From an uncultured Acidimicrobiales bacterium (lineage in GTDB: Bacteria > Actinomycetota > Acidimicrobiia > Acidimicrobiales > Aldehydirespiratoraceae), in contig CATQHS010000001.1 in assembly GCA_958296055.1 (NCBI GenBank), positions 692,277 to 756,276 on the forward strand: a stretch of DNA of 64,000 nt, written 5' to 3'. The notes beneath the pieces are model-generated. The model ran no database searches. It saw nothing but the letters and a program-made list of their open reading frames with translations, and was not told where the DNA came from. Positions within the stretch are counted from its first letter, which is position 1. Every line of letters begins with the position of its first letter. Of this stretch, positions 1 to 59,993 are shown piece by piece. Position numbers and translations under genes: made by a program.

Positions 1-773
1 TCGATATCACCACTTCCTGTATCGGGGTCTCGGAAGTAATAGAGACAGCCGTCAGTCAAGCTGTTCTCAAGCATACGCAGGATTGAGGTCCCTCTAACGA
101 CACCGTCCGGCTGGGTCGGGGTTTGAATCAGTTGATGGAATGGCGAGTCTTCGTCGAAATTGAGTCGCTCCAAAACAAACGAGGGGAAGCGTTTGCGCAT
201 CAGCGCAGGTGGGAGAGGTCCCTCGGTGGAGGGCAGCAGTTCGTAGACTAAGCCCTTAGGAAGTGGTCTCGTTGAGTTCACGAGGATGAACTGAGCGCGC
301 TGCTCGCCCTTGCTTGCCGTGATGAAGGCGGTGATGCACAGCGGGAAGAAGTCTACATCAGCCTCACGAACGGCAGCGCACCTTTGCTGGCCATCGACAA
401 TCCAGCCGGGCTTGTCCTCATCCGGCAGATCCTCATCGACAGGAACGATCAGCGTGCCTGGGGTCACGTATCCGTCATCTTGACTGATAGGCTCGGTCGG
501 CTCGAAATGAACTCGAGTGTCGAAGGCGACGACGATCGCGTTGGGGATCATCGGCGAAGTCGTTTCGATATATGAACGGATCGCGGCGACATGAGCCAAT
601 ACCTCGGGCCTTTGATAGCCTGCGATCTGCCGCTCATCGCGTCGTACCCGACTTACCGTCGTGAACTTCGACAAATCTTTGCCGTCAACGGCAAACGTAT
701 AGAGCCGCCGTTCGCGGCCCTGTCGCACCTCAAGGGCAGAGAACCGCAGTTCGTACGTTGACTCCCCACTCAC
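1..773 (-). CDS. DGQHR-domain protein (DndB/DpdB-like); 3' end cut by the window edge
   Basis: Absent from the ORF track because it runs off the left edge. Reverse-strand reading from GTG at 773 gives VSGESTYELRFSALEVRQGRERRLYTFAVDGKDL...PGWIVDGQQRCAAVREADVDFFPLCITAFITASKGEQRAQFILVNSTRPLPKGLVYELL... It has the DGQ(H/Q)R motif and an FI.VN...PL block. GAGGAG lies 12 nt upstream. The gap to the upstream gene is only 8 nt. Confidence 0.75.
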   Translation of the reverse strand, partial: MSGESTYELRFSALEVRQGRERRLYTFAVDGKDLSKFTTVSRVRRDERQIAGYQRPEVLAHVAAIRSYIETTSPMIPNAIVVAFDTRVHFEPTEPISQDDGYVTPGTLIVPVDEDLPDEDKPGWIVDGQQRCAAVREADVDFFPLCITAFITASKGEQRAQFILVNSTRPLPKGLVYELLPSTEGPLPPALMRKRFPSFVLERLNFDEDSPFHQLIQTPTQPDGVVRGTSILRMLENSLTDGCLYYFRDPDTGSGDI

Positions 774-781
774 GGTACCAG

Positions 782-2032
782 TTAACTCCTCGGGTCAGTC
801 CGGTCGAGTTCTCGGTGAAGTCTCTCTGAGAAGACCGCGAGATTATGAAATCCTCGTCGCCGATTCCGGTCGGCTCCCCGAAAGATGATCACTTCAACCC
901 CGATCTCCCTGCAGACATTGCATCTGCATCGCTTCCACGGTGTTGCCTCAAGCGTTCGTTGATACTCTGCACTCCAATCCTTTTTCGCCTTGAACAGTTC
1001 AGCGTACGAGCAAATCGCGTCAAGAACACTCTCGACACTTTCGTTGCCTCGGTCGTAATTTCGCAACCGACTGAGACAGTCTCGTTCTAGCTGCCGAGCC
1101 AATTTCTGATCGACTAGGCCCGCCGTCACCTGTCTGCGCAACCTGGTGTTGCCATCGACTTGAGGGATGCGAAGGGCGACAAAACTGCTATCGAGCGTGT
1201 AGTAGTTGTCCTTCTCATCCTTAAAGGCTTGGCGGAAGGGAGATGTGCTATCAAAACTCGTCACACCGAACCCTGCAAAGTCATGTACATGCGCCGTGCG
1301 GGTGATGCCCAAGAGGTGCAGTTGCGCGGTTGGATCGAGAGCGATCGATACCTCCTTAAGCGACTTGAGGATATCGGGGGTCTTCAGCGGCACCATGCCC
1401 CCAAGAGCAATCCGGCCGTACCCGATGCTCTGCAGTTGCGTCACTGCCCTCGCATAGGACAGTGGGCTCCAACCGTGGGCTACTGCCATGGGTTCGAACT
1501 GGCACCTGCGAGCCCGGTGCAACCGGAGGAACTCTGCTGCGAGTTCGATGGTGAGGCTCTGACGGAACTTCCACTCCTCCGGTACGTCGTCGGCGCTCTT
1601 CGCGTCCAGTTCAGCGTCATAGCCGAAGATCAGGTGGTCCATCGCGATTCCTAGGTCCAGGTTGCATTCATCGTAGAAGTCCAAGACCTCCTCAACTGTG
1701 TACACGGGTTGATCTTCGCGTACGTAGGTGAACGCGCCGCAATCGCCCATGATCTTGAGGTAATCGCCTCTCTGATCAAGCCGGAAAAATCGCTTGGCAC
1801 CTTGTCGATAGAGACGGTTGCGTTGGGCCTCGGTATATTTGGCTGTTGTCCCAAATAGGCCGTCCACGATGGGCTTGGAGATCAGCAGCCCGTCGTATGG
1901 TGGCGGATCGATAACTTCATGGGCATAGCGATCGTCTCTCTGGCGGACGCGATAGATTGATCGCTGCTCTTTGATAAAGTCGAAACTCGGGTCGACTTGA
2001 TCCTGGCTGTCGGGGAAGTAGAACTGCATCAC
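782..2032 (-). CDS. tRNA-guanine-transglycosylase-fold protein, DpdA-like (putative DNA base-exchange enzyme)
   Basis: 416-aa ORF with TGT-fold landmarks GDCGAFTY, IALGGMVPLK, HLLGITR and VTSFDSTSPFRQA, plus the Zn site CRCNVC...GFH. The upstream gene's stop overlaps its start (GTGATG at 2027-2032). GC is much lower than in the core genes. Confidence 0.75.
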   Translation of the reverse strand: MMQFYFPDSQDQVDPSFDFIKEQRSIYRVRQRDDRYAHEVIDPPPYDGLLISKPIVDGLFGTTAKYTEAQRNRLYRQGAKRFFRLDQRGDYLKIMGDCGAFTYVREDQPVYTVEEVLDFYDECNLDLGIAMDHLIFGYDAELDAKSADDVPEEWKFRQSLTIELAAEFLRLHRARRCQFEPMAVAHGWSPLSYARAVTQLQSIGYGRIALGGMVPLKTPDILKSLKEVSIALDPTAQLHLLGITRTAHVHDFAGFGVTSFDSTSPFRQAFKDEKDNYYTLDSSFVALRIPQVDGNTRLRRQVTAGLVDQKLARQLERDCLSRLRNYDRGNESVESVLDAICSYAELFKAKKDWSAEYQRTLEATPWKRCRCNVCREIGVEVIIFRGADRNRRRGFHNLAVFSERLHRELDRTDPRS

Positions 2033-2961
2033 GCCTGCCCGAACAGTAGGCTAAACCGTGCCTGCTCGCACGCCTTGCCTTCGTCACGGAAGCGTCGGAG
2101 CGCAGATGTCTTGGTCGCGTTCGGGAACTCCGCCAAGTACTCGCAGATCCAGTCCAAGATCACGTCGTCACGCTGCCGCCGACGATTGAAAGAAGGAAGT
2201 TCGCCAGCCGTCGCCGTCAGTTCGGCCACGATGCTCCGAGCCTCGTCTACGTTATACGCAAGGTTTCCGAGTTTTGCAAGAACCGCCTTGGCCGCGCGGA
2301 GGTTGGTTGACGACAGCGAGCCGCCAAGCACGAGCCTCAGACTGCCGGATACCGCCACCCAGCATTCTTCCAATCCCGCTAGGGGCTTACCAGAAGCGAA
2401 GACCATTACTCGCTTGGGATCACCGAGGCGCTCAATGAGAGTTGTCAAATCGGTGGCTATCGCATCGAGATAGTCTCGTCCCACGCAGACTACCACGCTT
2501 GTGGCAGATTCAGCCTGCTCGAGATCAACGAGGCGCTGAGGGCCGCCCCGATGCAGAACCTCGGCACGCGTCAATTCATCCCACCACTGCCGCCGGACAT
2601 GGCGGGATGCCATTAGATCCGACGTTGCGAGCACTGAATCCGGGTGTCGAGCAGAAAGGGTTGCCCCGTACATTGGCACTCTGTCGCGAATTCCAACAAG
2701 ACCTAAGCCAGCCGAAACAACAGAGACGCTGATCTGCCTGGACGACTCGGCGCATGAAGCGAGTTCCATTCCAGTTTTCCAGTACTCCCCTGCGTACAGA
2801 TCCGTAGCCATGAACCGCCGAGGAGATGTCGAGACAAGAGCAACCCACTTGGCGACACGATCCGATACGGGCACCTGACCGACATTGCGTAACTGCGGAT
2901 ACTCGGGCTCTAACGCACGCTTACGGGCTGTACAAGAGAGGATGATATGCAGTTTCTGCAT
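2029..2961 (-). CDS. Hypothetical protein with a YaaA/DUF328- or DUF6884-like N-terminal region
   Basis: 310-aa ORF with an ATG start at 2961. N-terminal pattern is HIILSCTARKR...DLYAGEYW...VVSAGLGLV...PMYGATLS. The family assignment is from memory of the motif pattern only. It is first in the coupled three-gene cassette. Confidence 0.5.
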   Translation of the reverse strand: MQKLHIILSCTARKRALEPEYPQLRNVGQVPVSDRVAKWVALVSTSPRRFMATDLYAGEYWKTGMELASCAESSRQISVSVVSAGLGLVGIRDRVPMYGATLSARHPDSVLATSDLMASRHVRRQWWDELTRAEVLHRGGPQRLVDLEQAESATSVVVCVGRDYLDAIATDLTTLIERLGDPKRVMVFASGKPLAGLEECWVAVSGSLRLVLGGSLSSTNLRAAKAVLAKLGNLAYNVDEARSIVAELTATAGELPSFNRRRQRDDVILDWICEYLAEFPNATKTSALRRFRDEGKACEQARFSLLFGQA

Positions 2962-2986
2962 CTACTGACACTACCGACTATGGCAA

Positions 2987-3739
2987 CTAGGGAGCACTGC
3001 CATGACGCCCAGAGCGCCCTCCTCTATCCTTCATGGCACCGGTCGGGGCAGCCGCGGCTTGTCTCAGCGTTGCCAGATGGGCGCGCACCGCTGGGACGCG
3101 ACCTAGCAGATAGCTGAGAACCTCGTCTTTTTGGCGCTCGAACACCGGATCGCCGTCGAGCGCGCCCGACTCTTCTAGCAAATTGACGATCCTGTCCAGA
3201 GTCGGAGAGTGCAAAGACGTGCCGTACCTTTGAGTGTGGAACCGAATCCCGTCCTCAATGGTGTACGGGCTCTGAGAGTCCAACGCCGCTATGTCGATGT
3301 AGTCCCGAACCTTCGGTCGATACATGATGACGTCGAGCTTAGACGCGAACAGGTCGGGCAGGGAGGCCACTCGCATCCCGCTCACGCTCAAACTTCGACC
3401 GATCGGCTCGACGTAACCGGGACGGTCTCCCCGTACAGGAGCGAGGAAGACCTGAACGGACACGCCGGAGACTAGAGCCTGCAACCAATCCGTCTCAGCA
3501 GCCATCAGCTCGAATGACAGAGAGCGCTGCTCCATCCGCTTGGCCACTTGACGCCCCGAGAATGTCCGTTGCGCCATGTAGTCCAAGTCATACGACATCC
3601 GGTGGCGCAGGTGCACGGCCAATGCCGTGCCTCCCATCAGGGCTCCGCTCATGGGGGTGACCGCCGCGGCCACTGCCCGCCATACTTCGCACATGCGGTC
3701 ACCGAGCAAATCGCTCCAATCCTCGATGTCCGGTTTCAT
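2987..3739 (-). CDS. Nucleotidyltransferase toxin of the AbiEii/AbiGii family (DUF1814)
   Basis: An internal ATG at 3739 (MKPDIEDW...) was chosen over the 324-aa ORF, whose Arg-rich N-terminus overlaps the upstream gene. NTase motif GALMGGTALAVHLRHRMSYDLDY and a later KLDVIMYRPKVRDYIDIAAL block are present. The junction with the upstream gene is an ATGA overlap (3736-3739). Confidence 0.8.
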   Translation of the reverse strand: MKPDIEDWSDLLGDRMCEVWRAVAAAVTPMSGALMGGTALAVHLRHRMSYDLDYMAQRTFSGRQVAKRMEQRSLSFELMAAETDWLQALVSGVSVQVFLAPVRGDRPGYVEPIGRSLSVSGMRVASLPDLFASKLDVIMYRPKVRDYIDIAALDSQSPYTIEDGIRFHTQRYGTSLHSPTLDRIVNLLEESGALDGDPVFERQKDEVLSYLLGRVPAVRAHLATLRQAAAAPTGAMKDRGGRSGRHGSAP

Positions 3740-4680
3740 GGTGTCTCGCGGGCGCGAATGGTCGAATCCAGCGTCACGGCGATGCTGCCCGCGTCGTAGC
3801 CGCGCCTGGCCCGGATCTGTTTCAGCGCCTCCACGGGAAGATGCGTCAGCGCCCAGTTGCGAGCCGCCACGTCTGGGCCGCTGAGCATCGTGTCGGCCAC
3901 CGTCAAGGCGTGCTCGGGAAGCCGCAGATCCGCGGCGTTGGCGCCCGACCAGAACAGCCACCAGAACTCATGGGGCACCCGCTCGGGGCATTCCCCGACG
4001 ATGGCCGGGCGCCGCGGCAGGTATGCGATCGCCTCGGAACAGACCTCGGAAGGCGACATAGACCACACCCGCGCTCGGGTCGGCCGATAGCCGCGCTGCA
4101 CCGCGGCCTCCTCGCAAACCGCATAGCCGCGGCGGGCCAACTCGTTCAAACAGCGCCGGGCGTGCGCCGGCGAGAGGCGCGCCTCGGTGGCGATCCGGTC
4201 CGCGGTCGCGCCCCGGTAACAGCTCCGCAGCACGGCCATGACCGTCCGCTGACCGGCTGTCAGAGACTCAATCGGGTTGGCGTCGGGGTCGAGGTACCAC
4301 GGCAGCCTCCGAGTCACGACTGATTCAATGTCGGCGGGCATTCGCAGCAGGGCTTCGAGCCGTCTCGGGCCCGGCGGACGTTCGGTGAGCTCCAGGGCGC
4401 GGGCCACCCTCCGGGCGGTCGGAGCGGACACGCCCAACAGCCGCTTCACGCCACTCGGACTGGTGTCCTCGGCGTCGGCCGCCCTCGCCCACGCGTCTAA
4501 ACCGATCTTCGACGAATGCAGCGCCGACTCGGTGGTGACCGTGAAGTCGCGGCGGCAGGCCCGGCAACGCCATCTGCTCAAGGTTCTCCGCGGCCGGACT
4601 GCGACCTTCTCGTCGGAACACCGTGGGCATCGAATGCCGCCCGGCCACCGAAGGCGAACGCACAGAGCTTCGGTGCTCAC
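3736..4680 (-). CDS. Zn-ribbon + winged-helix protein, putative cognate antitoxin or regulator for the AbiEii toxin
   Basis: 314-aa ORF with a GTG start at 4680. The N-terminus RLRWPGGIRCPRCSDEKV...RWRCRACRRDF is a four-Cys ribbon like the transposase Zn-ribbon domain. The central LTAGQRTVMAVLR...ADRIATEARLSPAHARRCLNELARRGYAV resembles a wHTH. Its stop is coupled to the toxin start. Confidence 0.55.
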   Translation of the reverse strand: MSTEALCVRLRWPGGIRCPRCSDEKVAVRPRRTLSRWRCRACRRDFTVTTESALHSSKIGLDAWARAADAEDTSPSGVKRLLGVSAPTARRVARALELTERPPGPRRLEALLRMPADIESVVTRRLPWYLDPDANPIESLTAGQRTVMAVLRSCYRGATADRIATEARLSPAHARRCLNELARRGYAVCEEAAVQRGYRPTRARVWSMSPSEVCSEAIAYLPRRPAIVGECPERVPHEFWWLFWSGANAADLRLPEHALTVADTMLSGPDVAARNWALTHLPVEALKQIRARRGYDAGSIAVTLDSTIRARETP

Positions 4681-4741
4681 CGCTCAAGCCTATCGCTAAC
4701 GATGGGGCTTTATCTTTCGATATGTACGAGATGTACGAGAC

Positions 4742-5689
4742 TCAGCCCCAACCGAGCTGGCTGCGGGCCTGGGCCACGTCGAGGGCCAACTGCTCGGCGA
4801 GCTGGTCGATCCCTTCGAACTTGCGCTCGCTGCGGATGAAGTCGATCAGCTCCACCCGCACCTCGCGGTCGTACAGGTCGCCGTCGAAGTCCATGAAATG
4901 GACCTCCAGCAACGACTGCTCGGCGTGCTCGTGGAAGGTGGGGCGGCGGCCGATGTTGATGGCGCAGCCCCGGCGGCTGCCGTCGTCGAGGATGCCCCAG
5001 CCCGAGTAGACGGCGTCGGCGGGCCAGGCCATCAGGGGGGGTGCCGGGATGTTGGCGGTGGGGAAGCCGATGGTGCGGCCCCGCTGCTCGCCTCTCACCA
5101 CCACGCCCCGGACCTCATAGGGCCGGCCCAGCATCCGGGCCGCCCGGGCCACGTCGCCCCCGGCCAGCGCCCGCCGGATGGCGGTGGACGACACCGGCTC
5201 CGGGGCGTCGGACCGGTGCCGGATCAGCTCCACCGGCACCACCTCGAAATCCCACTCCCGGCCCAGCCGGATCATCTCGTCCACATTGCCGGAGCGGCCC
5301 TTGCCGAAATGGAAGTCCTCGCCCACCACGATGGCCCGAGCGTGCAGGGCGTCCAAGAACACCTGCTCCACGAACTCCTCGGGGTTGGTGCCGGCCCGGA
5401 TCTCGTCGAAATGGATGACGTAGGCGTAGTCCAGCCCCTGGGCCTCCAGCAGCTCCAGCTTCTGGTCGAGGGTGGTGAGCAGCTTGGGCGCGTTCTCGGG
5501 CCGCACCACGTGGGCGGGATGGATGTCGAAGGTGACCACGGCCGAGGCCACCTCCAGCCGGGCCGCGGTCACCGCCACCTGCGAGAACACCTCCTGATGC
5601 CCGAGGTGGACGCCGTCGAACACGCCGACGGTGGCCGCCACCGACACCGCGGCGGGCAGCCGGTCGCGCTGATCGTGCAGCAACTCCAT
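4742..5689 (-). CDS. ribF: Bifunctional riboflavin kinase / FMN adenylyltransferase
   Basis: 315 aa. VGVFDGVHLGHQ, GEDFHFGKGRSG and a C-terminal riboflavin kinase block (GFPTANI...EVHFMDFDGDLYDREV). Confidence 0.92.
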   Translation of the reverse strand: MELLHDQRDRLPAAVSVAATVGVFDGVHLGHQEVFSQVAVTAARLEVASAVVTFDIHPAHVVRPENAPKLLTTLDQKLELLEAQGLDYAYVIHFDEIRAGTNPEEFVEQVFLDALHARAIVVGEDFHFGKGRSGNVDEMIRLGREWDFEVVPVELIRHRSDAPEPVSSTAIRRALAGGDVARAARMLGRPYEVRGVVVRGEQRGRTIGFPTANIPAPPLMAWPADAVYSGWGILDDGSRRGCAINIGRRPTFHEHAEQSLLEVHFMDFDGDLYDREVRVELIDFIRSERKFEGIDQLAEQLALDVAQARSQLGWG

Positions 5690-5778
5690 CGCCGCCTACC
5701 GATGCCCTGTCGCCAGCGACAAGGCGATGCCGTGCTCTCCGTGTCCCGGTTCCATCGCCGGCCGACGCTACCGGTGCC

Positions 5779-6657
5779 TCACCCGGCCACCACCACCATC
5801 GGCTTGGCCGCCGCGCCGAAGGGCTCGTACACGGCCAGCAGCTCGCCGACGGGGCCGTGGACGGCCCACGGGCCTTGGCCGGTGGCCCCGAGGCGGTCGC
5901 AGTCCAGCACCCGGCCGCAACCGACGTCGGCCGCGCCGGCCTCGTCCACGCTCACGCCGGGGAGGTGACTCACGGCCGCGGCCATCGGCAGCAGGACCGG
6001 GCTGGACACCGGGCGGGCCTGGTCCAGGCCGAAGCCCCCCACCGCGGTGCGGCGCAGCGACCGCAGATGGGCACCGCCTCCCAGGGCCCGGCCCAAGTCC
6101 GAGGCCAGGACCCGGACGTAGGTGCCCGATGAGCACTCGACCGCGGCCCGCCACACCCCTTCGGACCCGGCGGCGGGGGCCACATCGAAGCGGTGAACGG
6201 TCACGGGCCGGGCCGGGCGGTCGACCTCCACGCCCTCGCGGGCCAGCTCGTACAGCCGCCGGCCCCCCACCTTCACCGCCGACACCATGGGCGGCACCTG
6301 CATGATCTCGCCGGTGAGAGCCTCGGCCGCGGCCCTCACCTCGGTCTCGGCCACCTCGGCCATGTCCCAGCGGGCCATGACCCGGCCCGACGAGTCGCCG
6401 GTGTCCGTCTCAGCCCCGAGCACGATCTCGGCCTCGTAGCTTTTGGGCAAGACGGTGAGGAAGCGCAGCAGGCGGGTAGCCCGCCCCACCCCCAGCACCA
6501 GCACGCCGGTGGCGTCGGGGTCGAGCGTCCCGCTGTGGCCGACCCGGCCGGTGCCCAGCACGCCGCGGGTTTTGGCCACCACGTCGTGGCTGGTCCACCC
6601 GGCCGGCTTGTCCACCACCGCCACGCCGCTCGGGCCGCCGCCCCGCCGCCGGCTCAC
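5779..6657 (-). CDS. truB: tRNA pseudouridine(55) synthase
   Basis: 292 aa. VDKPAGWTSHDVV...GHSGTLDPDATGVLVLGVG. Conserved position between rbfA and ribF. Confidence 0.92.
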   Translation of the reverse strand: MSRRRGGGPSGVAVVDKPAGWTSHDVVAKTRGVLGTGRVGHSGTLDPDATGVLVLGVGRATRLLRFLTVLPKSYEAEIVLGAETDTGDSSGRVMARWDMAEVAETEVRAAAEALTGEIMQVPPMVSAVKVGGRRLYELAREGVEVDRPARPVTVHRFDVAPAAGSEGVWRAAVECSSGTYVRVLASDLGRALGGGAHLRSLRRTAVGGFGLDQARPVSSPVLLPMAAAVSHLPGVSVDEAGAADVGCGRVLDCDRLGATGQGPWAVHGPVGELLAVYEPFGAAAKPMVVVAG

Positions 6658-7144: not shown

Positions 7145-10100
7145 TCACCCCTCCGAGGTGCGGGCTATCTCGCGCTCCTCGTAGGTCTCGATGACGTCGC
7201 CCGACCTCAGGTCCTGGAAGTCGCTCAGCCCCACCCCGCACTCGTAGCCGGAGGAGACGGTGCGCACATCCTCTTTGAACCGCTTGAGCGACGAAACCGC
7301 GCCCTTCCAGATGACGGCCCCGTCCCGCAGGAACCGAACCCTCGAGCCCCGCCTGATCTCGCCGTTCTGCACGTAGCAGCCGGCGACGGCCCCCACCCGG
7401 GGGACCCGGAAGATCTCCCGCACCTCGGCCTCGCCGGTGACGACCTCCTCGATCTCGGGGGCGAGCATCCCGGCCCGGGCCGATTCCATGTCCTCGAGGA
7501 GCTTATAGATGATCTCGTAGGTGCGGATCTCGACGTTCTCAGCCTCGGCCGTTTCCCGGGCCTTGCGGTCGGGGCGCACGTTGAAACCGATGATGGTGGC
7601 GTTGGCCGCGGCGGCCAGTCCGACGTCGCTCTCGGTGATGCCGCCCACCCCTCGATGCACGAACCCGATCCTGACCTCGTCGGCCTCGAGCTTGCGCACG
7701 CTTCCGGTGACGGCTTCCAGCGATCCGTTGGCGTCGGCTTTCACGATCAGGTTCAGCGTGGCCGCCTCGCCCCGGCTGATCCGGGTGAAGATGTCCTCCA
7801 GCCGGGCCCCGCCCGACAGGGCGTGGGCATCCCGGCCCAGGCTCGACTGGCGCTGCCAGTGCTCGCGGGCGCTGGCCACCCGGCCCGCCACCTTCTCGTT
7901 GGGGGCCACCACGAAGGGGTCGCCGGCCTCGGCCACCTCGGAGAGGCCGAGCACCTGCACCGGGGTGGACGGCCCGGCCTGGTGCAGGACGTCGCCCCGG
8001 TCGTCGAGCAGGGCCCGGACCCGGCCCCAAGCCGCCCCGGCCACCACCGGGTCTCCGGCCTCCAGCATCCCCCGCTGCACCAGCACGGTGGCGACCGGGC
8101 CTCGGCCGATGTCTAGGTGGGCCTCCAGCACCACGCCGCCCGCTCGGCCCTCCTCCGGGGCCTGCAGGTCTTCCACCTCGGCCAACAACAGGACCTGATC
8201 GAGCAGGTCTTCTAGGCCTGTTTCATGCAGGGCCGACACCTCGCAGAAAATGGTGTCTCCGCCCCAGACTTCGGGAACGAGGCCGTGCTCGGCCACTCCG
8301 GCCATGGTCTTTTGCACGTCGGCGTTGTCCCGGTCGATCTTGTTGACGGCCACCACGATGGGGACTTCGGCCGCCTTGGCGTGATTAATGGCCTCGATGG
8401 TCTGGGGCATGACCCCGTCGTCGGCGGCCACCACCAGCACCACTATGTCGGTGGCGTCGGCCCCTCGGGCCCGCATGGCCGTGAACGCCTCATGGCCGGG
8501 GGTGTCGATGAAGGTGATCCTCTTGCCGTCCCGCTCCACCTGGTAGGCGCCGATGTGCTGGGTGATGCCGCCCGCCTCGCCGGCGACGACGTTGGCGCTG
8601 CGGATGCGGTCCAACAGGAGCGTCTTGCCGTGGTCGACGTGGCCCATCACCGTGACCACCGGCGGACGGCCGGGGGCGCCGGAGTCATCACCGTCGAAAA
8701 GGTCGGCGGTGCCGACCTCGAGGAGCTTCTGGAGCTCCAGCTCCTGCTCTTCGCCGGGATCCACGAGCCGGATGTCGGCCCCCAGTTCGGCTGCGAACAA
8801 CTCGATCATGTCGTCGCTGAGGGACTGGGTGGCGGTGACCATCTCACCCTGGTGCATCAGGAAGCGAACCACATCGGCCGCGGTGCGGTTGAGCTTGGGG
8901 CCGAGATCCTGGGCGGTGGAGGCCCTTTCGATCACCACCTCCCCGGCGGGTATCGGCGTGTCCAGAGGGGTGTAGGACGGGACGTCCATGGGCTGGAGCT
9001 CTTCGCGCACGCGCCGCCGTCGGCTCTTGCGCCGGGGCGGGCGCCGTTGGCCCCCTCCGGGACCGCTCCGACCGCGGCCCCCTCCGGGGGGGCCGGGTTG
9101 GGGCCCCGCTCCCGGCACCGATTGGCGGGGACCGCCGCTGGGCCGGGGACCGGCCGGGAAGGGGCTTCGCCTGGGCCCCGGGGATCGCTCGCCGGGGCGG
9201 TCGGACGGGCGGCGGGGACCGGCGCCGGCCGGGCGGGAGGACGAAGAACGGCGGGGAAGGGGGCCGGAGCCGGCCGGGCGGCCCGGAGGCGACCGGAGCG
9301 GAGGAGGCGGGGGCGGGATGGGCTTACCCGAACGCGACATCGGAGGAGGCGGGATCGGCTGGCCCGAACGCGACACCGGAGGAGGCGGACCAGACCCCGG
9401 AGGAGGCCCACCAGACGCTGGAGCCTGCCTCCCCGGCGGACCCGACGCCGGAGCCTGCCTACCCGGCGGACCAGACGCCGGAGCCTGCCTACCCGGCGGA
9501 CCAGACGCCGGAGCCTGCCTACCCGGCGGACCAGACGCCGGAGGGCCAGACCTCGGAGCCTGCCTCCCCGGCGGACCGGACGACGGAGCCTGCCTACCCG
9601 GCGGACCACCCGCCGCCGGAGCCTGCCTCCCTGGCGGACCACCAGACGCCGGAGCTTGCCTACCCGGCGGACCCGACGCCGGAGGGCCAGACCTCGGAGC
9701 CTGCCTCCCCGACGGGGCGGCGGCGTCGAATGCCGCGGCCGCTTGGCCCGGCGGAGCGCCAACCGAGGGGGGGGTGCGTCGGGCCGGCGGTCTCTCCGGC
9801 GCGGCCGAAGGCCCAGCCGCGGCCGGCGGCGCGGCGGCCAGCGGCGGCGGTTCCTCTTCGACCGGGCGGCGAGGAGGGGCCACGCTGCCGCTGGAGGAGA
9901 TGGCCTGGCGAGGCGGCCCGGGCGGCGGCGGGGGGGCTGCCCGGGGCTCGGCTCTCTTCGGCGCGGCTGCCGGGGGCTCGGCTTTCTTCGGTGCGGCTGC
10001 CGGGGGCTCCGCTCTCTTGGGCGGGGCCGGCATGGATTCCACCTTGGGTTCTGCCTGCCCGGTTTCGGTTTTCTCGAAGGTCGGCTTGGGCTCGGCCTTG

Positions 10101-10522
10101 GCCGGTTCGGTCTTCGCCGATCCGGTCACATCGGCACCGGCCGCGGCGGCGAGGTTCGGAGCCTCGGCCCTGGACACGGCATCAGCGGCGACCCGGGCCT
10201 CGGCCGCCTCGATCGGAGTCGCCGGCGCCGGGACTTTCTCGGCCCCGGGCCCGGAGACCCGGGCCCCGGCCGCCTCAGCGTCATCGGCGGCGACCTCAGG
10301 GGCGGGAGCAGCCTGCGGGGGGTCCGAGACGGCGGGAGGCTCTGGCTCGGAGAGCAGCCCTTCCCGCTCAGCCTTGCGGCGAACCCGGTCGGCTTGGGCC
10401 TCGACGATGCTGGACGAATGGGACTTCACCCCGATGCCGAGCTGACCGCAGAGGTCCAAGGTCTCCTGATTGGGGAGGCCAAGCTCTCGAGCCAGCTCGT
10501 AGACGCGGATGTTGCTTGGCAC
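7145..10522 (-). CDS. infB: Translation initiation factor IF-2 with a long Pro/Ala/Gly-rich repetitive N-terminal region
   Basis: 1125 aa with a GTG start. N-terminus is (V)[14 protein letters not shown]. GTPase block [17 protein letters not shown]...DTPGHEAF...NKID, and a conserved C-terminal domain. Confidence 0.95.
9400..9715 (-). repeat. In-frame 30-nt tandem repeat array inside infB (about 10 units, three consecutive perfect copies)
   Basis: The unit ggaccagacgccggagcctgcctacccggc is perfectly repeated around 9450-9540, with diverged copies on both sides. It encodes reiterated GPPGRQAP(A/S/R)SG. Confidence 0.9.
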
Positions 10523-30085: not shown

Positions 30086-30700
30086 TCAGTTCCCGCCGGT
30101 GAATACGACACGACTGCCGACCATTTTGTCGTGCACAGTCTGGCTCCGGTCGCCCCGCAGCAGCCACAGATGATCAACCAGCCACAGCAGCAGGACCAGC
30201 GGCAAGGCCACAGTGCCCAAAGGAATCACGAACAAGATCCAGAAGGGCCCGAAAGGAACTAAAAAGATGAGGCCGGCGAATCTGGCGTCTCTGGCCATTC
30301 CCCGCCAGAAGCCGAGGGTCCGGCTGTGGTCGCCCGCCGTCACCACCTTCAGCTTCAGGAACGCCTTGCCCGGCGTCCGACCGAGCAAGCCCGTGAGCAG
30401 ACCACCCCAGGCCAAGGCTGCGAGCACTGAGAGCGCGGGGAAGGCGACAGATAGGACGCCCCGCGCGTGGTTAGAGGGATCGTTGGTGGGGAAGACCAGG
30501 TCCCACATGCCCTCCAGCGGGCCCCAGAGCACGATGGAGATCAAAAAGACCGGCACCAAGATCGCCCCGAAGCAGACCAGATCGACCAGGAAGGCGCAGA
30601 CGCGCTGATCCAAGCTGGCCGACGGCAGCCGCGATCCGTCCGAGCTGGACTCGCCGGGCGACAGAGGCCCGTCTGGCGAAGCCGCCGGCGTCCGATCCAA
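30086..30700 (-). CDS. RDD-family membrane protein (paralogue 2); the start codon appears decayed
   Basis: 204 aa from TTG at 30700. RVCAFLVDLVCF..., RTPGKAFLKLKVV..., QTVHDKMVGSRVVF. The in-frame upstream codons ATC GGC AGT CTT CCT TCG CCT CCT... mirror the ATG AGC AAC CTC CCC CCG CCT CCG... start of paralogue 3. Confidence 0.7.
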   Translation of the reverse strand: MDRTPAASPDGPLSPGESSSDGSRLPSASLDQRVCAFLVDLVCFGAILVPVFLISIVLWGPLEGMWDLVFPTNDPSNHARGVLSVAFPALSVLAALAWGGLLTGLLGRTPGKAFLKLKVVTAGDHSRTLGFWRGMARDARFAGLIFLVPFGPFWILFVIPLGTVALPLVLLLWLVDHLWLLRGDRSQTVHDKMVGSRVVFTGGN

Positions 30701-30760
30701 GATCTCCGGCGGAGGAGGCGAAGGAGGCGAAGGAAGACTGCCGATGCCGGGAGATTATGT

Positions 30761-31501
<741 letters not shown>

Positions 31502-52916: not shown

Positions 52917-54164
52917 TCAGCCCTGTTCCCCGCATCTCGGGCTCAGGCGCAGGGCGGAAGTCACCTCCGGCATCGCCATGATCGGATGCTCGCTGGAGGC
53001 GGCGGAGTAAAGGTCCAGCAACGCCGCCGCTTCGTAGCCTCGGCGCCCCTTGCCGATGCTGCGAGACGCGAGAACGCCCGCCTGGGCCAACGTCTGCAGC
53101 GCCTGCCGGGCCCGGCGCTCGGTCCGCCCGTACCGCTCCGCCACCATCTTCGAGTCGAGCACCGGGTGCAGGGTCAGGTCGCGCAGGATCTGGGCGACCA
53201 GAGACTTCCGCTTGGGCGCCACCGCCTGCTCCCACCGGTCGCGTATCTCGGCTGCGGCGGAGCGAATCGCCGACCCCAGATGGCAGGCGAAGACCGTGGC
53301 CTCCTCCAGCAGGCGGATCATCGGGCCCCAGATCCGGTCCGGCTCGGCGCCGCCGTCGGCGATCGCTCGATGCGATCGGCTCAGCGCCTCGAAGTATTCG
53401 CCGCGGCGGCGGGCCAGGTGAGCGCTGACCGGCACCGTGCTCGTAGCGGTGATCAGGCCGTGGCGGGCCCAGAGCATGTGGATCAGCGCTCGTCCGGCCC
53501 GGCCGTTGCCGTCGGGGAACGGGTGGATGTGCTCGAACCGGGCGTGGGCCACCGCGGCCTGGACCAGGGGCCGCTCGGTCCCGCTCGTGTTCATATAGCC
53601 CACGAGATCGGCCATCAGCTCGTCGACGGCATCGGGGGGAGGAGAGACGAAGTCCGCATTCGCCGGGGTAGGTCGGAGATCGCCGCCGCCGATCCAGTTC
53701 TGGGTGCGGCGGATGGCTCCGGGGGTCGCCCACTCGTATTCGGGGTCGTCGGCCATCAGCGTCTCATGAACCGCGCAGATGTCCTCCACTGCGAACGGGC
53801 GGCTGGCGTCCGACCCGATCCGCAGCGCCAGTTCGGTGGCGGCGATGTTGCGGAGGGCGGTCTTCTCCGGCTGTCGGCCCTCGCCGGTGGCTTCGGACCT
53901 GGCCAACCGGCGCAGCGACGGGTGAACCCCCTCGATGGTGGTGGAGGACGCGCCCTCCGTGTGGCTGATCAGCCAGTCGCTCACCGGAGACCGCTCATCG
54001 TGCGCGAAGGCCCTGACCTCCTCCTCGGCTGCTCTGAGCCGGTCGAACTCAGCCGAGTCCATGCGCACGACCGTCCCGGCGACCGGGGGCGGCACGAAGC
54101 ACCGATACGGGACCCGCTCCCCTTGAGGGCTCGTCCAGATCCGCTCCACCCAATGTCCGGCCAT
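52917..54164 (-). CDS. Fic family protein (AMPylase-type) with an N-terminal inhibitory-helix motif and a C-terminal wHTH
   Basis: ATG at 54164 with GAAGG 9 nt upstream. The Fic motif is HPFPDGNGRAGR. STTIEG matches the (S/T)xxxE(G/N) inhibitory motif. The C-terminus is ...RARQALQTLAQAGVLASRSIGKGRRGY. Confidence 0.85.
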   Translation of the reverse strand: MAGHWVERIWTSPQGERVPYRCFVPPPVAGTVVRMDSAEFDRLRAAEEEVRAFAHDERSPVSDWLISHTEGASSTTIEGVHPSLRRLARSEATGEGRQPEKTALRNIAATELALRIGSDASRPFAVEDICAVHETLMADDPEYEWATPGAIRRTQNWIGGGDLRPTPANADFVSPPPDAVDELMADLVGYMNTSGTERPLVQAAVAHARFEHIHPFPDGNGRAGRALIHMLWARHGLITATSTVPVSAHLARRRGEYFEALSRSHRAIADGGAEPDRIWGPMIRLLEEATVFACHLGSAIRSAAAEIRDRWEQAVAPKRKSLVAQILRDLTLHPVLDSKMVAERYGRTERRARQALQTLAQAGVLASRSIGKGRRGYEAAALLDLYSAASSEHPIMAMPEVTSALRLSPRCGEQG

Positions 54165-54299
54165 GACACAAACCTTCTCAGATCGCCGGCTCTGACCGTC
54201 GACGGCCCACAATGACTTCCGCCACGCCGGAGTTTCGGCGCGTTGAGGCTTGTCAAGCTATCAAAATTTCCGCAAGGTCGCCGATGAGGCCGGGCTGAC

Positions 54300-58253: not shown

Positions 58254-59663
58254 ATGTTCGTTGGAGTGGATGCGGTCGAGCGGTTCGACAAGGACTTGGA
58301 CTCTCTGCTGGGGCGGGTGCGCGCCGGGGAGGTGACCTTGGGCCGCCTCAGGGATCTGATCGCGGGCAGCCGCTCGGTGGAGGCCAAGATGGCCATGCTG
58401 CAAACCGAGGCAGCCCGGTTAATCGCCCTAGGGGAGCGTCACGGCGACGGCGGCGCCTCGGTGCTGTGCGACCAGGCCGGCAAGTCCCGGGCCCAGGCCC
58501 GCCGCCATCTGGCCGTCGCCGAGACGCTCGACGAAATGCCTCAGGTGCGCTCGGCGGTGGACGCCGGGGAGGTGTCGCTGACCAACGCCGAGCGCCTGGC
58601 CCACGCGGCCAAGCGCACCGGCCCCGAAACTGTCGACGCGTCCGCCGGCTTGCTGGACAAGGCTCGGCAACTGCCGCCAGACCGGTTCGCCCGCGAGGTC
58701 GCCGCCTGGACCCAAGGCCAGCAGGCCGACCACGGCCACGGCGACTACCTGCGCCAGCGCCAGCGGCGCTACCTCAGGATGCGCCGGGAGGGCGACATGA
58801 TGCGCTTCGACGGCCAATACGACCTCGAAGCCGGCACCCGCATCGGCGCCCGCCTTCAACGGCTGGCCGAAGCCCTCCGCCGCCAAGACGACCAGGCCGC
58901 CCGCAACGGCGGCGGGACCGGCGACGGCGAGGGCCGCCGAACCTGGGATCAGCTCCAAGCCGACGCCCTCGACCAGCTCGCCTCTGGCGATGCCGGATCC
59001 AATGACCGGGGCGGCGCTGGGGGCAGGCCCAAGGCCGAGGTGATCGTGGTGGCCGACATCGGGGTGCTCACCGGCGACGACCCGTCCGGCCGCTGCGAGA
59101 TCCCCGGAGTGGGCCCGGTGCCCCCGGAGGTGCTGGAACGCGTCGCCTGTGACGCCGAGCTCACCGGCGTTTTGTTCAGCGAAGGCAAGCCGCTTTACCA
59201 CGGGGCCACGGTGCGCACCGCCACCAAAGCCCAATGGCGGATGCTGGTCGCCCGAGACGGGGGCTGCATCGGCTGCGGCGCCGAGCCCCGGTGGTGCCAG
59301 GCCCACCACACCGTCCCCTACGCCCGATCCCGCCGCACCGGCATCGACCAGCTCGTGCTGGTGTGCTGGCAATGCCACCACAACATCCACGACCACAACT
59401 GGCAGCTCACCCACCGCCAAGGCAAACCAGCCCTCCAACCCCCCGACCCCGCCGACATCCGCCCTCGTCGCGGTCACGCCAGCCAAAACGCCCGCAGCAA
59501 CAGCAGCCCCCCGCCTCCCCCCGACCACAGCAGGCCCCCACCCCCAGACCGAGCCGTCCCCAACCCGGACCGAGAAGCCCCAGCCCCTCCAAACCCGGAC
59601 CGACAACCCGACCGAGATCAAGGCACAGACCGAGAAAGAGCCCCAGCCCTCTTCCCAACCTGA
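58254..59663 (+). mobile_element. DUF222 + HNH endonuclease protein gene (REP13E12-type selfish element)
   Basis: 469 aa. A DUF222-like N-terminal half (...LQTEAARLIA...AQARRHLAVAETLDEMPQVRSAVDAGEVSLTNAERLAHAAKR...). The HNH block is CIGCGAEPRWCQAHHTVPYARSRRTGIDQLVLVCWQCHHNIHDHNW. The tail is Pro-rich. Confidence 0.85.
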
Positions 59664-59676
59664 CCCCGACCCCAGG

Positions 59677-59796
59677 GCAACGGTGAAAGGTCGCCAGTGA
59701 GCCAGGCCAGCGGCATAGGCACCACCAACGTCAGAAAGGAGCCCGTCAACAAAGAGCCAAGAGAGCAACCGTGAAAGGTCGCCAGTGAGCCAGGCC
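59677..59796. repeat. 32-nt direct repeat x2 (GCAAC(G/C)GTGAAAGGTCGCCAGTGAGCCAGGCC)
   Basis: Copies at 59677-59708 and 59765-59796 with one mismatch, just downstream of the HNH gene stop. Confidence 0.85.
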
Positions 59797-59805
59797 GGGG
59801 GGTGG

Positions 59806-59852
59806 CACGGGGGTTAGCGTCGGCGCCGCTTGCGGCGACGACCGCCCCCGTG
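59806..59852 (+). terminator. Long GC-rich imperfect hairpin, possible intrinsic terminator without a U-tract
   Basis: The outer stem is CACGGGGG ... CCCCCGTG. The inner stem is GCGTCGGCGCCGC-TT-GCGGCGACGACCGC with one or two mismatches. It lies 143 nt after the HNH stop. Confidence 0.35.
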
Positions 59853-59967
59853 ACAGGACCCGCCGGCCGGGCAGCGCAAAGACGAAGACAGGACCCGCCG
59901 GCCGGACAGAGCAGCCGCCCAGAAACCGAGGAGAGAACCCGGCCCCCATGACAGGGCCCGTCGGCCG
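59852..59967. repeat. Three direct copies of GACAGG(A/G)CCCG(C/T)CGGCCG upstream of the Moco hydroxylase gene
   Basis: Copies at 59852-59870 and 59887-59905 (identical 19-mers) and a diverged copy at 59950-59967. The gene start is at 59994. Confidence 0.8.
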
Positions 59968-59993
59968 CTCCCGGGTCTAATCTGTAGGCGATC

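Follow-up and report, generated by a model that had tools for sequence, protein, structure and literature searches.

A dpdC-dpdA-dpdB operon, very probably the modification half of a horizontally acquired Dpd island, in an uncultured Acidimicrobiales bacterium

In the Dpd system, DpdA and DpdB insert preQ0 into DNA, with DpdB acting as an ATPase, and DpdC makes dADG (PMC10164549). DpdC has been described as DUF328-like (PMC5699537) and as a DUF6884 protein (PMC11888242). Altogether, 2,335 unique Dpd islands have been catalogued, 333 of them in Actinomycetota, the group of this phylum being marked by synthesis and restriction operons that are both complete (PMC11888242). Here we analyzed a 64,000-nt stretch of contig CATQHS010000001.1 from an uncultured Acidimicrobiales bacterium (the window), the left edge of which cuts dpdB. 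Positions 1-2961 very likely represent the dpdC-dpdA-dpdB modification operon of a horizontally acquired Dpd restriction-modification island, situated just downstream of ribF and beside an unrelated AbiEii pair. An earlier note, written from the letters of the window, had read the same genes as a variant or minimal base-exchange module, in which a protein of 310 residues could not be equated with any known Dpd component.

Three intact minus-strand ORFs are tightly packed at 1-2961 (Table 1), with dpdB open at the left edge. The dpdC stop codon (TGA, 2029-2031) overlaps the start of dpdA (GTG at 2030-2032 or ATG at 2027-2029) within GTGATG at 2027-2032, and dpdA and dpdB are separated by 8 nt (774-781). 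This packing, overlap and gap had all been proposed before and were verified on the sequence, and the motifs quoted at that time were all found as well, namely GDCGAF, ALGGMVP, HLLGIT, FDSTSPFRQA, CRCNVC...H, DGQQR, FILVNSTRPLP and the N-terminal strings of DpdC. The gene for the DGQHR protein is indeed cut by the window edge, as had been stated, with 257 of about 375-390 residues present in the open ORF at 1-773. Beyond the boundary spacer, ribF, truB, rbfA and infB come next on the same strand. No tRNA gene was found near this right boundary of the foreign segment, and no phage genes adjoin dpdC-dpdA-dpdB. An Rfam search of the whole window, in which a preQ1 riboswitch among others was sought, returned two tRNAs at 27.7 kb and nothing else, while a promoter and terminator scan of 1-6000 gave counts at shuffle level and says nothing on transcription units.

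Table 1. Features at the left end of the window
Feature	Coordinates	Strand	Remarks
dpdB, 5' two-thirds	1..773	-	257 codons, GTG start; open to left window edge
dpdA, predicted DNA-guanine transglycosylase, TGT fold	782..2032	-	416 aa, or 415 aa from ATG at 2029
dpdC, DUF328/DUF6884-like	2029..2961	-	310 aa
AbiEii-family nucleotidyltransferase toxin gene, non-Dpd neighbour	2987..3739	-	likely start ATG at 3739, 250 aa
Zn-ribbon + winged-HTH protein, putative antitoxin/regulator of abiEii	3736..4680	-	314 aa
Right boundary of foreign segment	4681..4741		61-nt spacer, ribF stop to first island gene

The dpdA product matches the NCBIfam model for DpdA, NF041059, over profile positions 1-405 of 406 (E 2.4e-172, 573.3 bits, cut-off 200) as well as the PADLOC DpdA model (E 4.2e-176), and it can be aligned along its whole length with the structure of S. 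Montevideo DpdA (PDB 7UI4; E 1.3e-131, about 50% identity). In this alignment, all 10 published catalytic and substrate-pocket residues of 7UI4 are identical in the window protein, with Asp95, Phe99, Asp130, His181, Gly182, Gly206, Gly207, Leu236, Asp256 and Phe265 corresponding to D97, F101, D132, H186, G187, G211, G212, L241, D261 and F270, respectively; the CxCxxC...H zinc site is also kept. Membership among the tRNA-guanine transglycosylases was considered and rejected, given scores of 17.1 bits with PF01702 (GA 26.3), 15 bits with TIGR00449 (cut-off 47.6) and 15.3 bits with TIGR00432 (cut-off 350). The suggestion of a DpdA-type TGT thus held up, and on these matches we assign the 416-aa protein as DpdA.

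Its partner scored 326.5 bits with the NCBIfam DpdB model NF041060 (cut-off 300; E 1.7e-97) despite its truncation, in keeping with its earlier description as a DpdB-type DGQHR protein. It also matched the DGQHR family TIGR03187 (1.3e-48) and PADLOC DpdB (6.4e-98), and is 88-92% identical to DpdB of three related loci (L001-L003) and 51% identical to the DpdB annotated by PGAP on plasmid pPOL9A. The presence of DGQQR in place of DGQHR, which might be taken as the sign of a variant, was rejected as such, since DGQQR is invariant in all 18 aligned sequences of DpdB and its paralogs; NSTxPLP is likewise invariant across the family. The edge-cut protein is accordingly identified by homology as DpdB, the DGQHR/ParB-like ATPase partner of DpdA.

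The 310-aa protein, which the earlier note had left without a Dpd counterpart, matches the PADLOC DpdC model PDLC02817 over its full length (E 1.7e-59; residues 1-309 vs. profile positions 1-292 of 299), and nine further PADLOC DpdC models match it as well. It shows homology (E 1e-13 and 4e-25) to the gene that immediately precedes dpdA in the annotated canonical cluster of pPOL9A, is 66-78% identical to the gene at the same position in L001-L003, and keeps every invariant column of an 11-sequence alignment, with only about 25% identity to enterobacterial DpdC. The YaaA/DUF6884 flavour that had been noticed is real, albeit weak and sub-threshold (DUF6884, E 0.0025, 18.4 bits vs. GA 30; YaaA NF002545, E 0.0033, 17.1 bits vs. 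cut-off 324, over a 72-residue stretch only), and DpdC itself is so described in the two papers cited above. We regard the second of these matches as resemblance and rejected membership among the YaaA/DUF328 peroxide-stress proteins. A search of solved structures with DpdC gave no significant match, and PGAP leaves the family at the DpdC position unnamed even in canonical clusters. The family similarities of the Dpd proteins are much too strong to be put down to chance (E 1e-59 to 1e-172). The 310-aa protein is, as judged from its sequence, DpdC.

If the mechanism worked out biochemically for the Salmonella Montevideo orthologues, and not at the window locus, is carried over, DpdA, with its TIM-barrel TGT fold, would swap genomic guanine for preQ0 (7-cyano-7-deazaguanine), with D261 as the predicted nucleophile and D97 as the predicted general acid/base. 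For this swap, DpdB, a ParB/DndB-like protein of the DGQHR type, would have to hydrolyse ATP. DpdC, acting independently, would then hydrate the nitrile of the DNA-borne preQ0 to the amide, yielding dADG (7-amido-7-deazaguanine), and the modified DNA would serve as a self mark for the helicase/nuclease restriction proteins DpdD-K.

The cassette is clearly foreign in composition because its GC and GC3 lie far below those of the core genes, bearing out what had been estimated by hand. GC is 0.56-0.58 in 1-3000, compared with about 0.72 for most of the sequence past the first 5 kb of the window, and GC3 is 0.62-0.65 in dpdC, dpdA and dpdB vs. 0.94-0.96 in ribF, truB and rbfA. Going leftward, GC3 falls in steps from ribF (0.95-0.96) through the Zn-ribbon/HTH gene (0.83) and abiEii (0.72) to the dpd genes. 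The dpd island is very probably an ordinary defence island, horizontally acquired by a high-GC host.

No homologue of the Dpd restriction genes (dpdD-dpdK) was found in the 64-kb window, which ends inside dpdB; the earlier note had seen none either, and its suggestion that partners might lie to the left is favored by the related loci. About 90 of these loci have their genes arranged as dpdC-(extra dpdB)-dpdA-dpdB, and the C-A-B layout of the window is found in L003 and L012-L014; in 42 of 47 related loci, dpdC is located no more than 2.4 kb upstream of dpdA. In all six of the closest relatives with enough flank (L001-L003 and L012-L014, DpdB 84-92% identical), dpdE and dpdF follow directly after dpdB, and dpdG and dpdH are also present in five, L013 ending inside dpdF. 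The PADLOC matches in these loci are 4e-223 for DpdE, 4e-236 for DpdF and 5e-21 for DpdG; the stretch of about 2 kb beyond dpdF/dpdG encodes dpdH, as revealed by tblastn with pPOL9A DpdH (1e-26 to 1e-28). In L003, an ORF of 537 aa on the minus strand runs antisense to dpdG, and L001 shows a DpdF/DpdG deletion. Since dpdE-dpdF follow dpdB in 6/6 closest relatives at the point where the window ends, the missing restriction genes most probably lie just off the window, with dpdE, dpdF, dpdG and dpdH beginning within a few hundred bases to its left. The restriction half of the island is thus most probably present, as suggested by synteny with these relatives.

We consider it unlikely that the locus is instead an orphan, restriction-less dpdCAB island, in which the modification would protect against foreign nucleases or serve as an epigenetic mark and the AbiEii toxin-antitoxin pair might stabilise the island. 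Besides the absence of restriction homologues from the window, islands that contain dpdC but no restriction genes have been documented (PMC11888242), and of the 33 related loci in which 4 kb or more of sequence follows dpdB, 15 have no downstream restriction homologue detectable with the reference set used; however, several of these 15 have their restriction genes on the upstream side or reversed in direction, and the window stops exactly where dpdE-F, followed in five cases by dpdG-H, are found in the closest relatives. The proximity of abiEii, which ends 25 nt before the start of dpdC on the same strand, also speaks for the orphan reading, but an AbiE pair was found in none of the 89 related dpd loci searched. 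A more specific form, in which restriction-less dpdC-dpdA-dpdB shares a transcript with the Zn-ribbon/HTH-AbiEii pair and is stabilised by it, has no linked preQ0 pathway and lays down a mark outside classical restriction-modification, appears quite improbable; if it were true, its novelty would be confined to the coupling with the AbiE pair, as restriction-less dpdCAB islands have already been described.

The claim of an AbiE-type pair next to the cassette stood for one of its two members. The toxin gene matches Pfam PF08843 (AbiEii; E 1.4e-11, 45.2 bits vs. GA 22.5), with weak matches to PADLOC AbiEii models (2e-4 and worse), but profile searches of the 314-aa partner gave no match to AbiEi families; what this protein does contain is similarity to Zn_ribbon_IS1595 (1.2e-5) and HTH_IclR (1.8e-5). 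An ATGA start/stop overlap at 3736-3739 couples the Zn-ribbon/HTH gene translationally to abiEii. Because none of the 89 related loci has it, the pair is no conserved partner of these genes, and we regard it as an unrelated neighbour that is not part of Dpd.

With respect to preQ0 supply, tblastn with profile-verified QueC, QueE, QueD and FolE2 queries from L004/L009 gave no match in the window with an E below 0.06. Genes of the que/folE2 type are present in 39 of the 89 related loci and in none of those from the closest clade. As no que/folE genes occur in the 64 kb, we surmise that preQ0 would be supplied from elsewhere in the genome or by salvage. One could also read this lack, together with the deletion in L001, as pointing to a silent remnant, intact as a cassette but inactive, be it for want of preQ0 or through truncation of the island outside the window. 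There is very little chance of this, given that the three frames are open, the start/stop coupling is intact and the catalytic residues are all kept; moreover, it is common for islands to have no preQ0 genes linked to them, and such islands are thought to use the host Q-pathway or salvaged preQ0 (PMC11888242). Finally, a new base-exchange or defence module, in which the TGT-like and DGQHR proteins join a novel YaaA/DUF6884-like component to install a different modification, is extremely improbable, for the sub-threshold Pfam/NCBIfam matches and the lack of a PGAP name that favor it are set against ten matching DpdC models, homology to the canonical DpdC-position gene with every invariant residue shared, a DpdA pocket identical at all published positions to that of the preQ0-inserting enzyme, and DGQQR as the norm for DpdB.

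The variant or minimal module of the earlier note therefore falls with its third protein, a match of which to DpdC had been named beforehand, together with dpdD-K immediately to the left, as an outcome that would speak against the proposal; the match to DpdC is seen here, and restriction genes to the left are favored by synteny with the six closest relatives. What we very probably have is an ordinary, already described Dpd system and no new base-exchange system. The locus adds a further Dpd island to those on record, in a high-GC host and beside another defence-type module, and matters little beyond its correct annotation. It does carry a caution. Because dpdC is left unnamed by NCBIfam/PGAP and falls below the Pfam DUF6884 threshold, canonical dpd operons seem to have an unknown partner when they are read from sequence or Pfam alone.

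Among known systems, phage DpdA, bacterial TGT and archaeal arcTGT have the TGT TIM-barrel fold and double-displacement base exchange in common with the DpdA of the window, and the phage DpdA enzymes work without DpdB and DpdC. The closest relatives of the window locus are the Dpd islands of Acidimicrobiia MAGs (VXWX01000019/58, CBDHCM010000006) and of metagenome contigs (MKWU01003224/4524), with 85-88% identity in DpdA, 84-92% in DpdB and 66-78% in DpdC, and 81-85% at the DNA level over dpdA-dpdB. Look-ups for exact copies of DpdC, DpdA (from either start), RibF and AbiEii found none, nor did a scan of metagenome contigs for exact 40-mers, with a nearest relative at 89% identity in DpdB. Four of them (L003 and L012-L014) resemble the window in having no extra dpdB paralog, and none has linked que genes; unlike the window, these relatives have a GC of 60-63%, nearer to that of their own hosts, are without an upstream AbiEii pair and sit in different chromosomal contexts. 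The Enterobacter cloacae plasmid pPOL9A (NZ_CP086409.1) has the same order of DpdC-position gene, dpdA and dpdB as the window, with 50% identity in DpdA, 51% in DpdB and an E of 4e-25 for the DpdC-position protein, but the restriction genes there (dpdD, K, J, I, H, G, F, E) form a convergent operon on the opposite strand, whereas dpdE-F-G-H are co-directional in the closest relatives of the window. Compared with the Dpd system of Salmonella enterica serovar Montevideo (dpdA-K), the window has a distant DpdC (about 25% identity to the enterobacterial type), a high-GC host and no linked preQ0 genes; both have the same three modification proteins in one operon of a horizontally acquired island, and their DpdA enzymes have the same Asp pair, base-stacking Phe/Leu, His/Gly pocket and zinc site.

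The three cassette ORFs lie co-directionally on the minus strand at the left end of the window, with intact and coupled reading frames: the stop of the 310-aa ORF overlaps the start of the 416-aa ORF inside GTGATG (2027-2032), and an 8-nt gap (774-781) separates the latter from the ORF cut by the window edge. Their composition is foreign to the surrounding genome, with a GC of 0.56-0.58 in positions 1-3000 vs. ~0.72 for most of the window past 5 kb, and a GC3 of 0.62-0.65 in the three genes vs. 0.94-0.96 in ribF, truB and rbfA directly to the right. The earlier note, a reading of the sequence alone, had described this packing and foreign low-GC character, and both were borne out; every motif it quoted was found in the cassette. 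Near the cassette, we detected no tRNA gene, no Rfam family and no promoter or terminator signal above chance.

Features of the cassette, its neighbours and other stretches of the window
Feature	Coordinates	Strand	Evidence
dpdB (predicted), 257 codons from GTG start, frame open to window edge	1-773	-	NF041060
dpdA (predicted), 416 aa	782-2032	-	ORF; NF041059, PADLOC DpdA, 7UI4
dpdC (predicted), 310 aa	2029-2961	-	ORF; PADLOC DpdC profiles
AbiEii-family nucleotidyltransferase gene	2987-3739	-	Pfam, 45 bits vs. GA 22.5
314-aa Zn-ribbon (IS1595-type) + IclR-like wHTH protein, upstream of abiEii	within 2987-4680	-	Pfam
infB	7145-10522	-	
Two adjacent RDD-family membrane protein genes	30086-31501	-	
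431-aa Fic/DOC-domain protein	52917-54212	-	Pfam, E 5.6e-20
469-aa DUF222 + HNH endonuclease protein	58254-59663	+	

Profile and structural comparisons identify the 416-aa protein as DpdA, in keeping with the TGT-like, DpdA-type assignment made earlier: it scored 573 bits against the DpdA equivalog NF041059 (cut-off 200) over the whole profile, matched PADLOC DpdA at E 4e-176, and aligned end to end with the crystal structure of Salmonella Montevideo DpdA (PDB 7UI4) at ~50% identity (E 1.3e-131), while tRNA-TGT models gave matches below threshold only in Pfam and NCBIfam profile searches. In the S. Montevideo enzyme, Asp95 is the general acid/base and Asp256 the nucleophile, with Asp130, His181, Gly182, Gly206 and Gly207 recognizing the base and Phe99, Leu236 and Phe265 stacking (Gedara et al., PMC10164549); in the alignment to 7UI4, all ten are identical, as D97, D261, D132, H186, G187, G211, G212, F101, L241 and F270, respectively, and the CxCxxC...H zinc site is likewise conserved. 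Likewise, the edge-cut partner, read previously as a DGQHR/DpdB-type protein, reached 326.5 bits against the DpdB equivalog NF041060 (cut-off 300) with just about two-thirds of the protein in the window, and is thus assigned to DpdB. We rejected the notion that its DGQQR motif, in place of DGQHR, marks a variant, as DGQQR is invariant in all 18 aligned DpdB and DpdB-paralog sequences, including the PGAP-annotated DpdB of the Enterobacter cloacae plasmid pPOL9A.

The earlier note could not equate the 310-aa protein with a known Dpd component, but its similarity to DpdC marks it as such: 1) ten PADLOC DpdC profiles matched it, the best at E 1.7e-59 over residues 1-309 (profile positions 1-292 of 299); 2) a tblastn search against plasmids returned one match, the gene directly upstream of dpdA on pPOL9A, whose fully annotated canonical cluster runs from this dpdC-position gene through dpdA and dpdB to dpdD, K, J, (I), H, G, F and E; 3) it retains all invariant columns of an 11-sequence alignment (C-x-x-x-K, LYxGxxW, SAGxGL, YxAT, WW and E-x-x-RF). 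Even on pPOL9A, PGAP leaves this gene an unnamed "hypothetical protein", which explains why NCBIfam gave a weak YaaA match and Pfam a sub-threshold DUF6884 match. The YaaA/DUF6884-like appearance noticed earlier fits DpdC, which has been described as similar to DUF328/YaaA (PMC5699537) and as carrying DUF6884 (PMC11888242).

Scanning a single genome from each species yielded nine dpd loci and a metagenome scan 80 more, giving 89 related loci. The three closest loci of the genome scan belong to Acidimicrobiia MAGs (DpdA 85-88% and dpdA-dpdB DNA 81-85% identical). The trio recurs elsewhere, a check proposed in the earlier note: of 47 loci that could be judged, 42 have dpdC upstream of dpdA at a distance of ≤2.4 kb. 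An extra DGQHR paralog sits between dpdC and dpdA in 39 of these 47; dpdB is the most frequently duplicated dpd gene in the GATOR-GC survey (PMC11888242). The window lacks this paralog, as do L003, L012-L014 among close relatives, and L008. A third, more distant DGQHR/DndB-like gene occurs upstream in L002 (6393-7505) and in L004 (4163-5296, adjoining queC), and in the metagenome loci L040, L042 and L045, dpdB is immediately followed by a second DpdC-like gene (order C-B'-A-B-C).

No restriction-type genes are visible in the window, as had been remarked, but this is most simply an edge effect. In all six closest loci with sufficient flank (L001-L003, L012-L014; DpdB 84-92% identical), dpdE and dpdF directly follow dpdB (in L003, PADLOC DpdE 3.8e-223 and DpdF 3.6e-236), and the window stops exactly where they would begin. 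Five of the six continue with dpdG (PADLOC 5e-21) and dpdH (tblastn to pPOL9A DpdH, 1e-26 to 1e-28), the latter running off the locus end in L001-L003; L013 ends inside dpdF. Since restriction-less dpdCAB islands exist (PMC11888242), we hold the edge effect to be very probable rather than certain. By analogy with S. Montevideo biochemistry (PMC10164549), DpdD-K would restrict DNA lacking the modification.

One Acidimicrobiaceae MAG, SB0668_bin_28, carries two Dpd islands, L001 (VXWX01000058) and L003 (VXWX01000019), both with DpdA 85-88% identical to that of the window and only one with the extra dpdB paralog; this could reflect a genuine duplication or a bin that mixes strains. In L001, DpdF has 768 vs. 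858 aa and DpdG is reduced to its C-terminal half, a pattern suggestive of a deletion spanning the dpdF/dpdG junction.

With profile-verified QueC, QueE, QueD and FolE2 from L004 and L009 as queries, neither the 64-kb window (best E 0.066) nor the loci of its closest clade yielded homologues. PreQ0-gene homologues occur in 39 of the 89 loci, and a complete block of queC, Cx14CxxC-type queE and queD, plus folE2 in L004, lies immediately upstream of dpdC in L004 (4163-7883) and L009 (5271-6993). A class of Dpd islands that have no linked preQ0 genes has been documented and is thought to rely on the queuosine metabolism of the host or on salvage (PMC11888242).

On the strand shared with the cassette, abiEii immediately precedes dpdC, its stop falling 25 nt ahead of the dpdC start. 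Its start is likely the ATG at 3739, where an ATGA overlap (3736-3739) couples it translationally to the gene for the 314-aa protein; a longer call (324 aa from 3961, overlapping the upstream gene by 225 nt) is probably over-extended. The AbiE-type toxin pair proposed earlier stands for AbiEii, but its partner matched no AbiEi family and may thus act as a non-canonical antitoxin or as a regulator of the toxin. GC3 steps up toward the core genes (0.62-0.65 in dpd, then 0.72, 0.83 and 0.95). Because none of the 89 related loci holds homologues of the pair, it is not part of Dpd but an independent neighbour, at a site just downstream of ribF that resembles a defence island.

Elsewhere in the window, the DUF222/HNH gene occupies a lower-GC stretch (0.68-0.70) with unusually strong AT skew (0.38 at 59001-60000), which may be another small foreign insertion. 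The Fic/DOC gene has a GC3 of 0.87, somewhat below its neighbours, and the RDD pair, with Pro-rich N-termini, sits in a 2-kb dip (65-66% GC, AT skew ~0.25). The unusually long N-terminal region of infB (~500 aa, rich in Pro, Ala and Gly) holds repeated units (23 protein letters, not shown), the probable cause of the 80% GC peak at 9001-10000.

The cassette had been put forward as a candidate variant module, yet each feature seen has been described for Dpd islands: the three genes and their synteny, a DpdC of the DUF328/DUF6884 kind, the DGQQR motif, the absence of linked que genes, toxin-antitoxin genes on the flank, horizontal transfer and occurrence in Actinomycetota (PMC5699537, PMC10164549, PMC11888242). 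As PGAP would also automatically name two of its three proteins, we regard the cassette at 1-2961 as a Dpd cassette of an already known kind.
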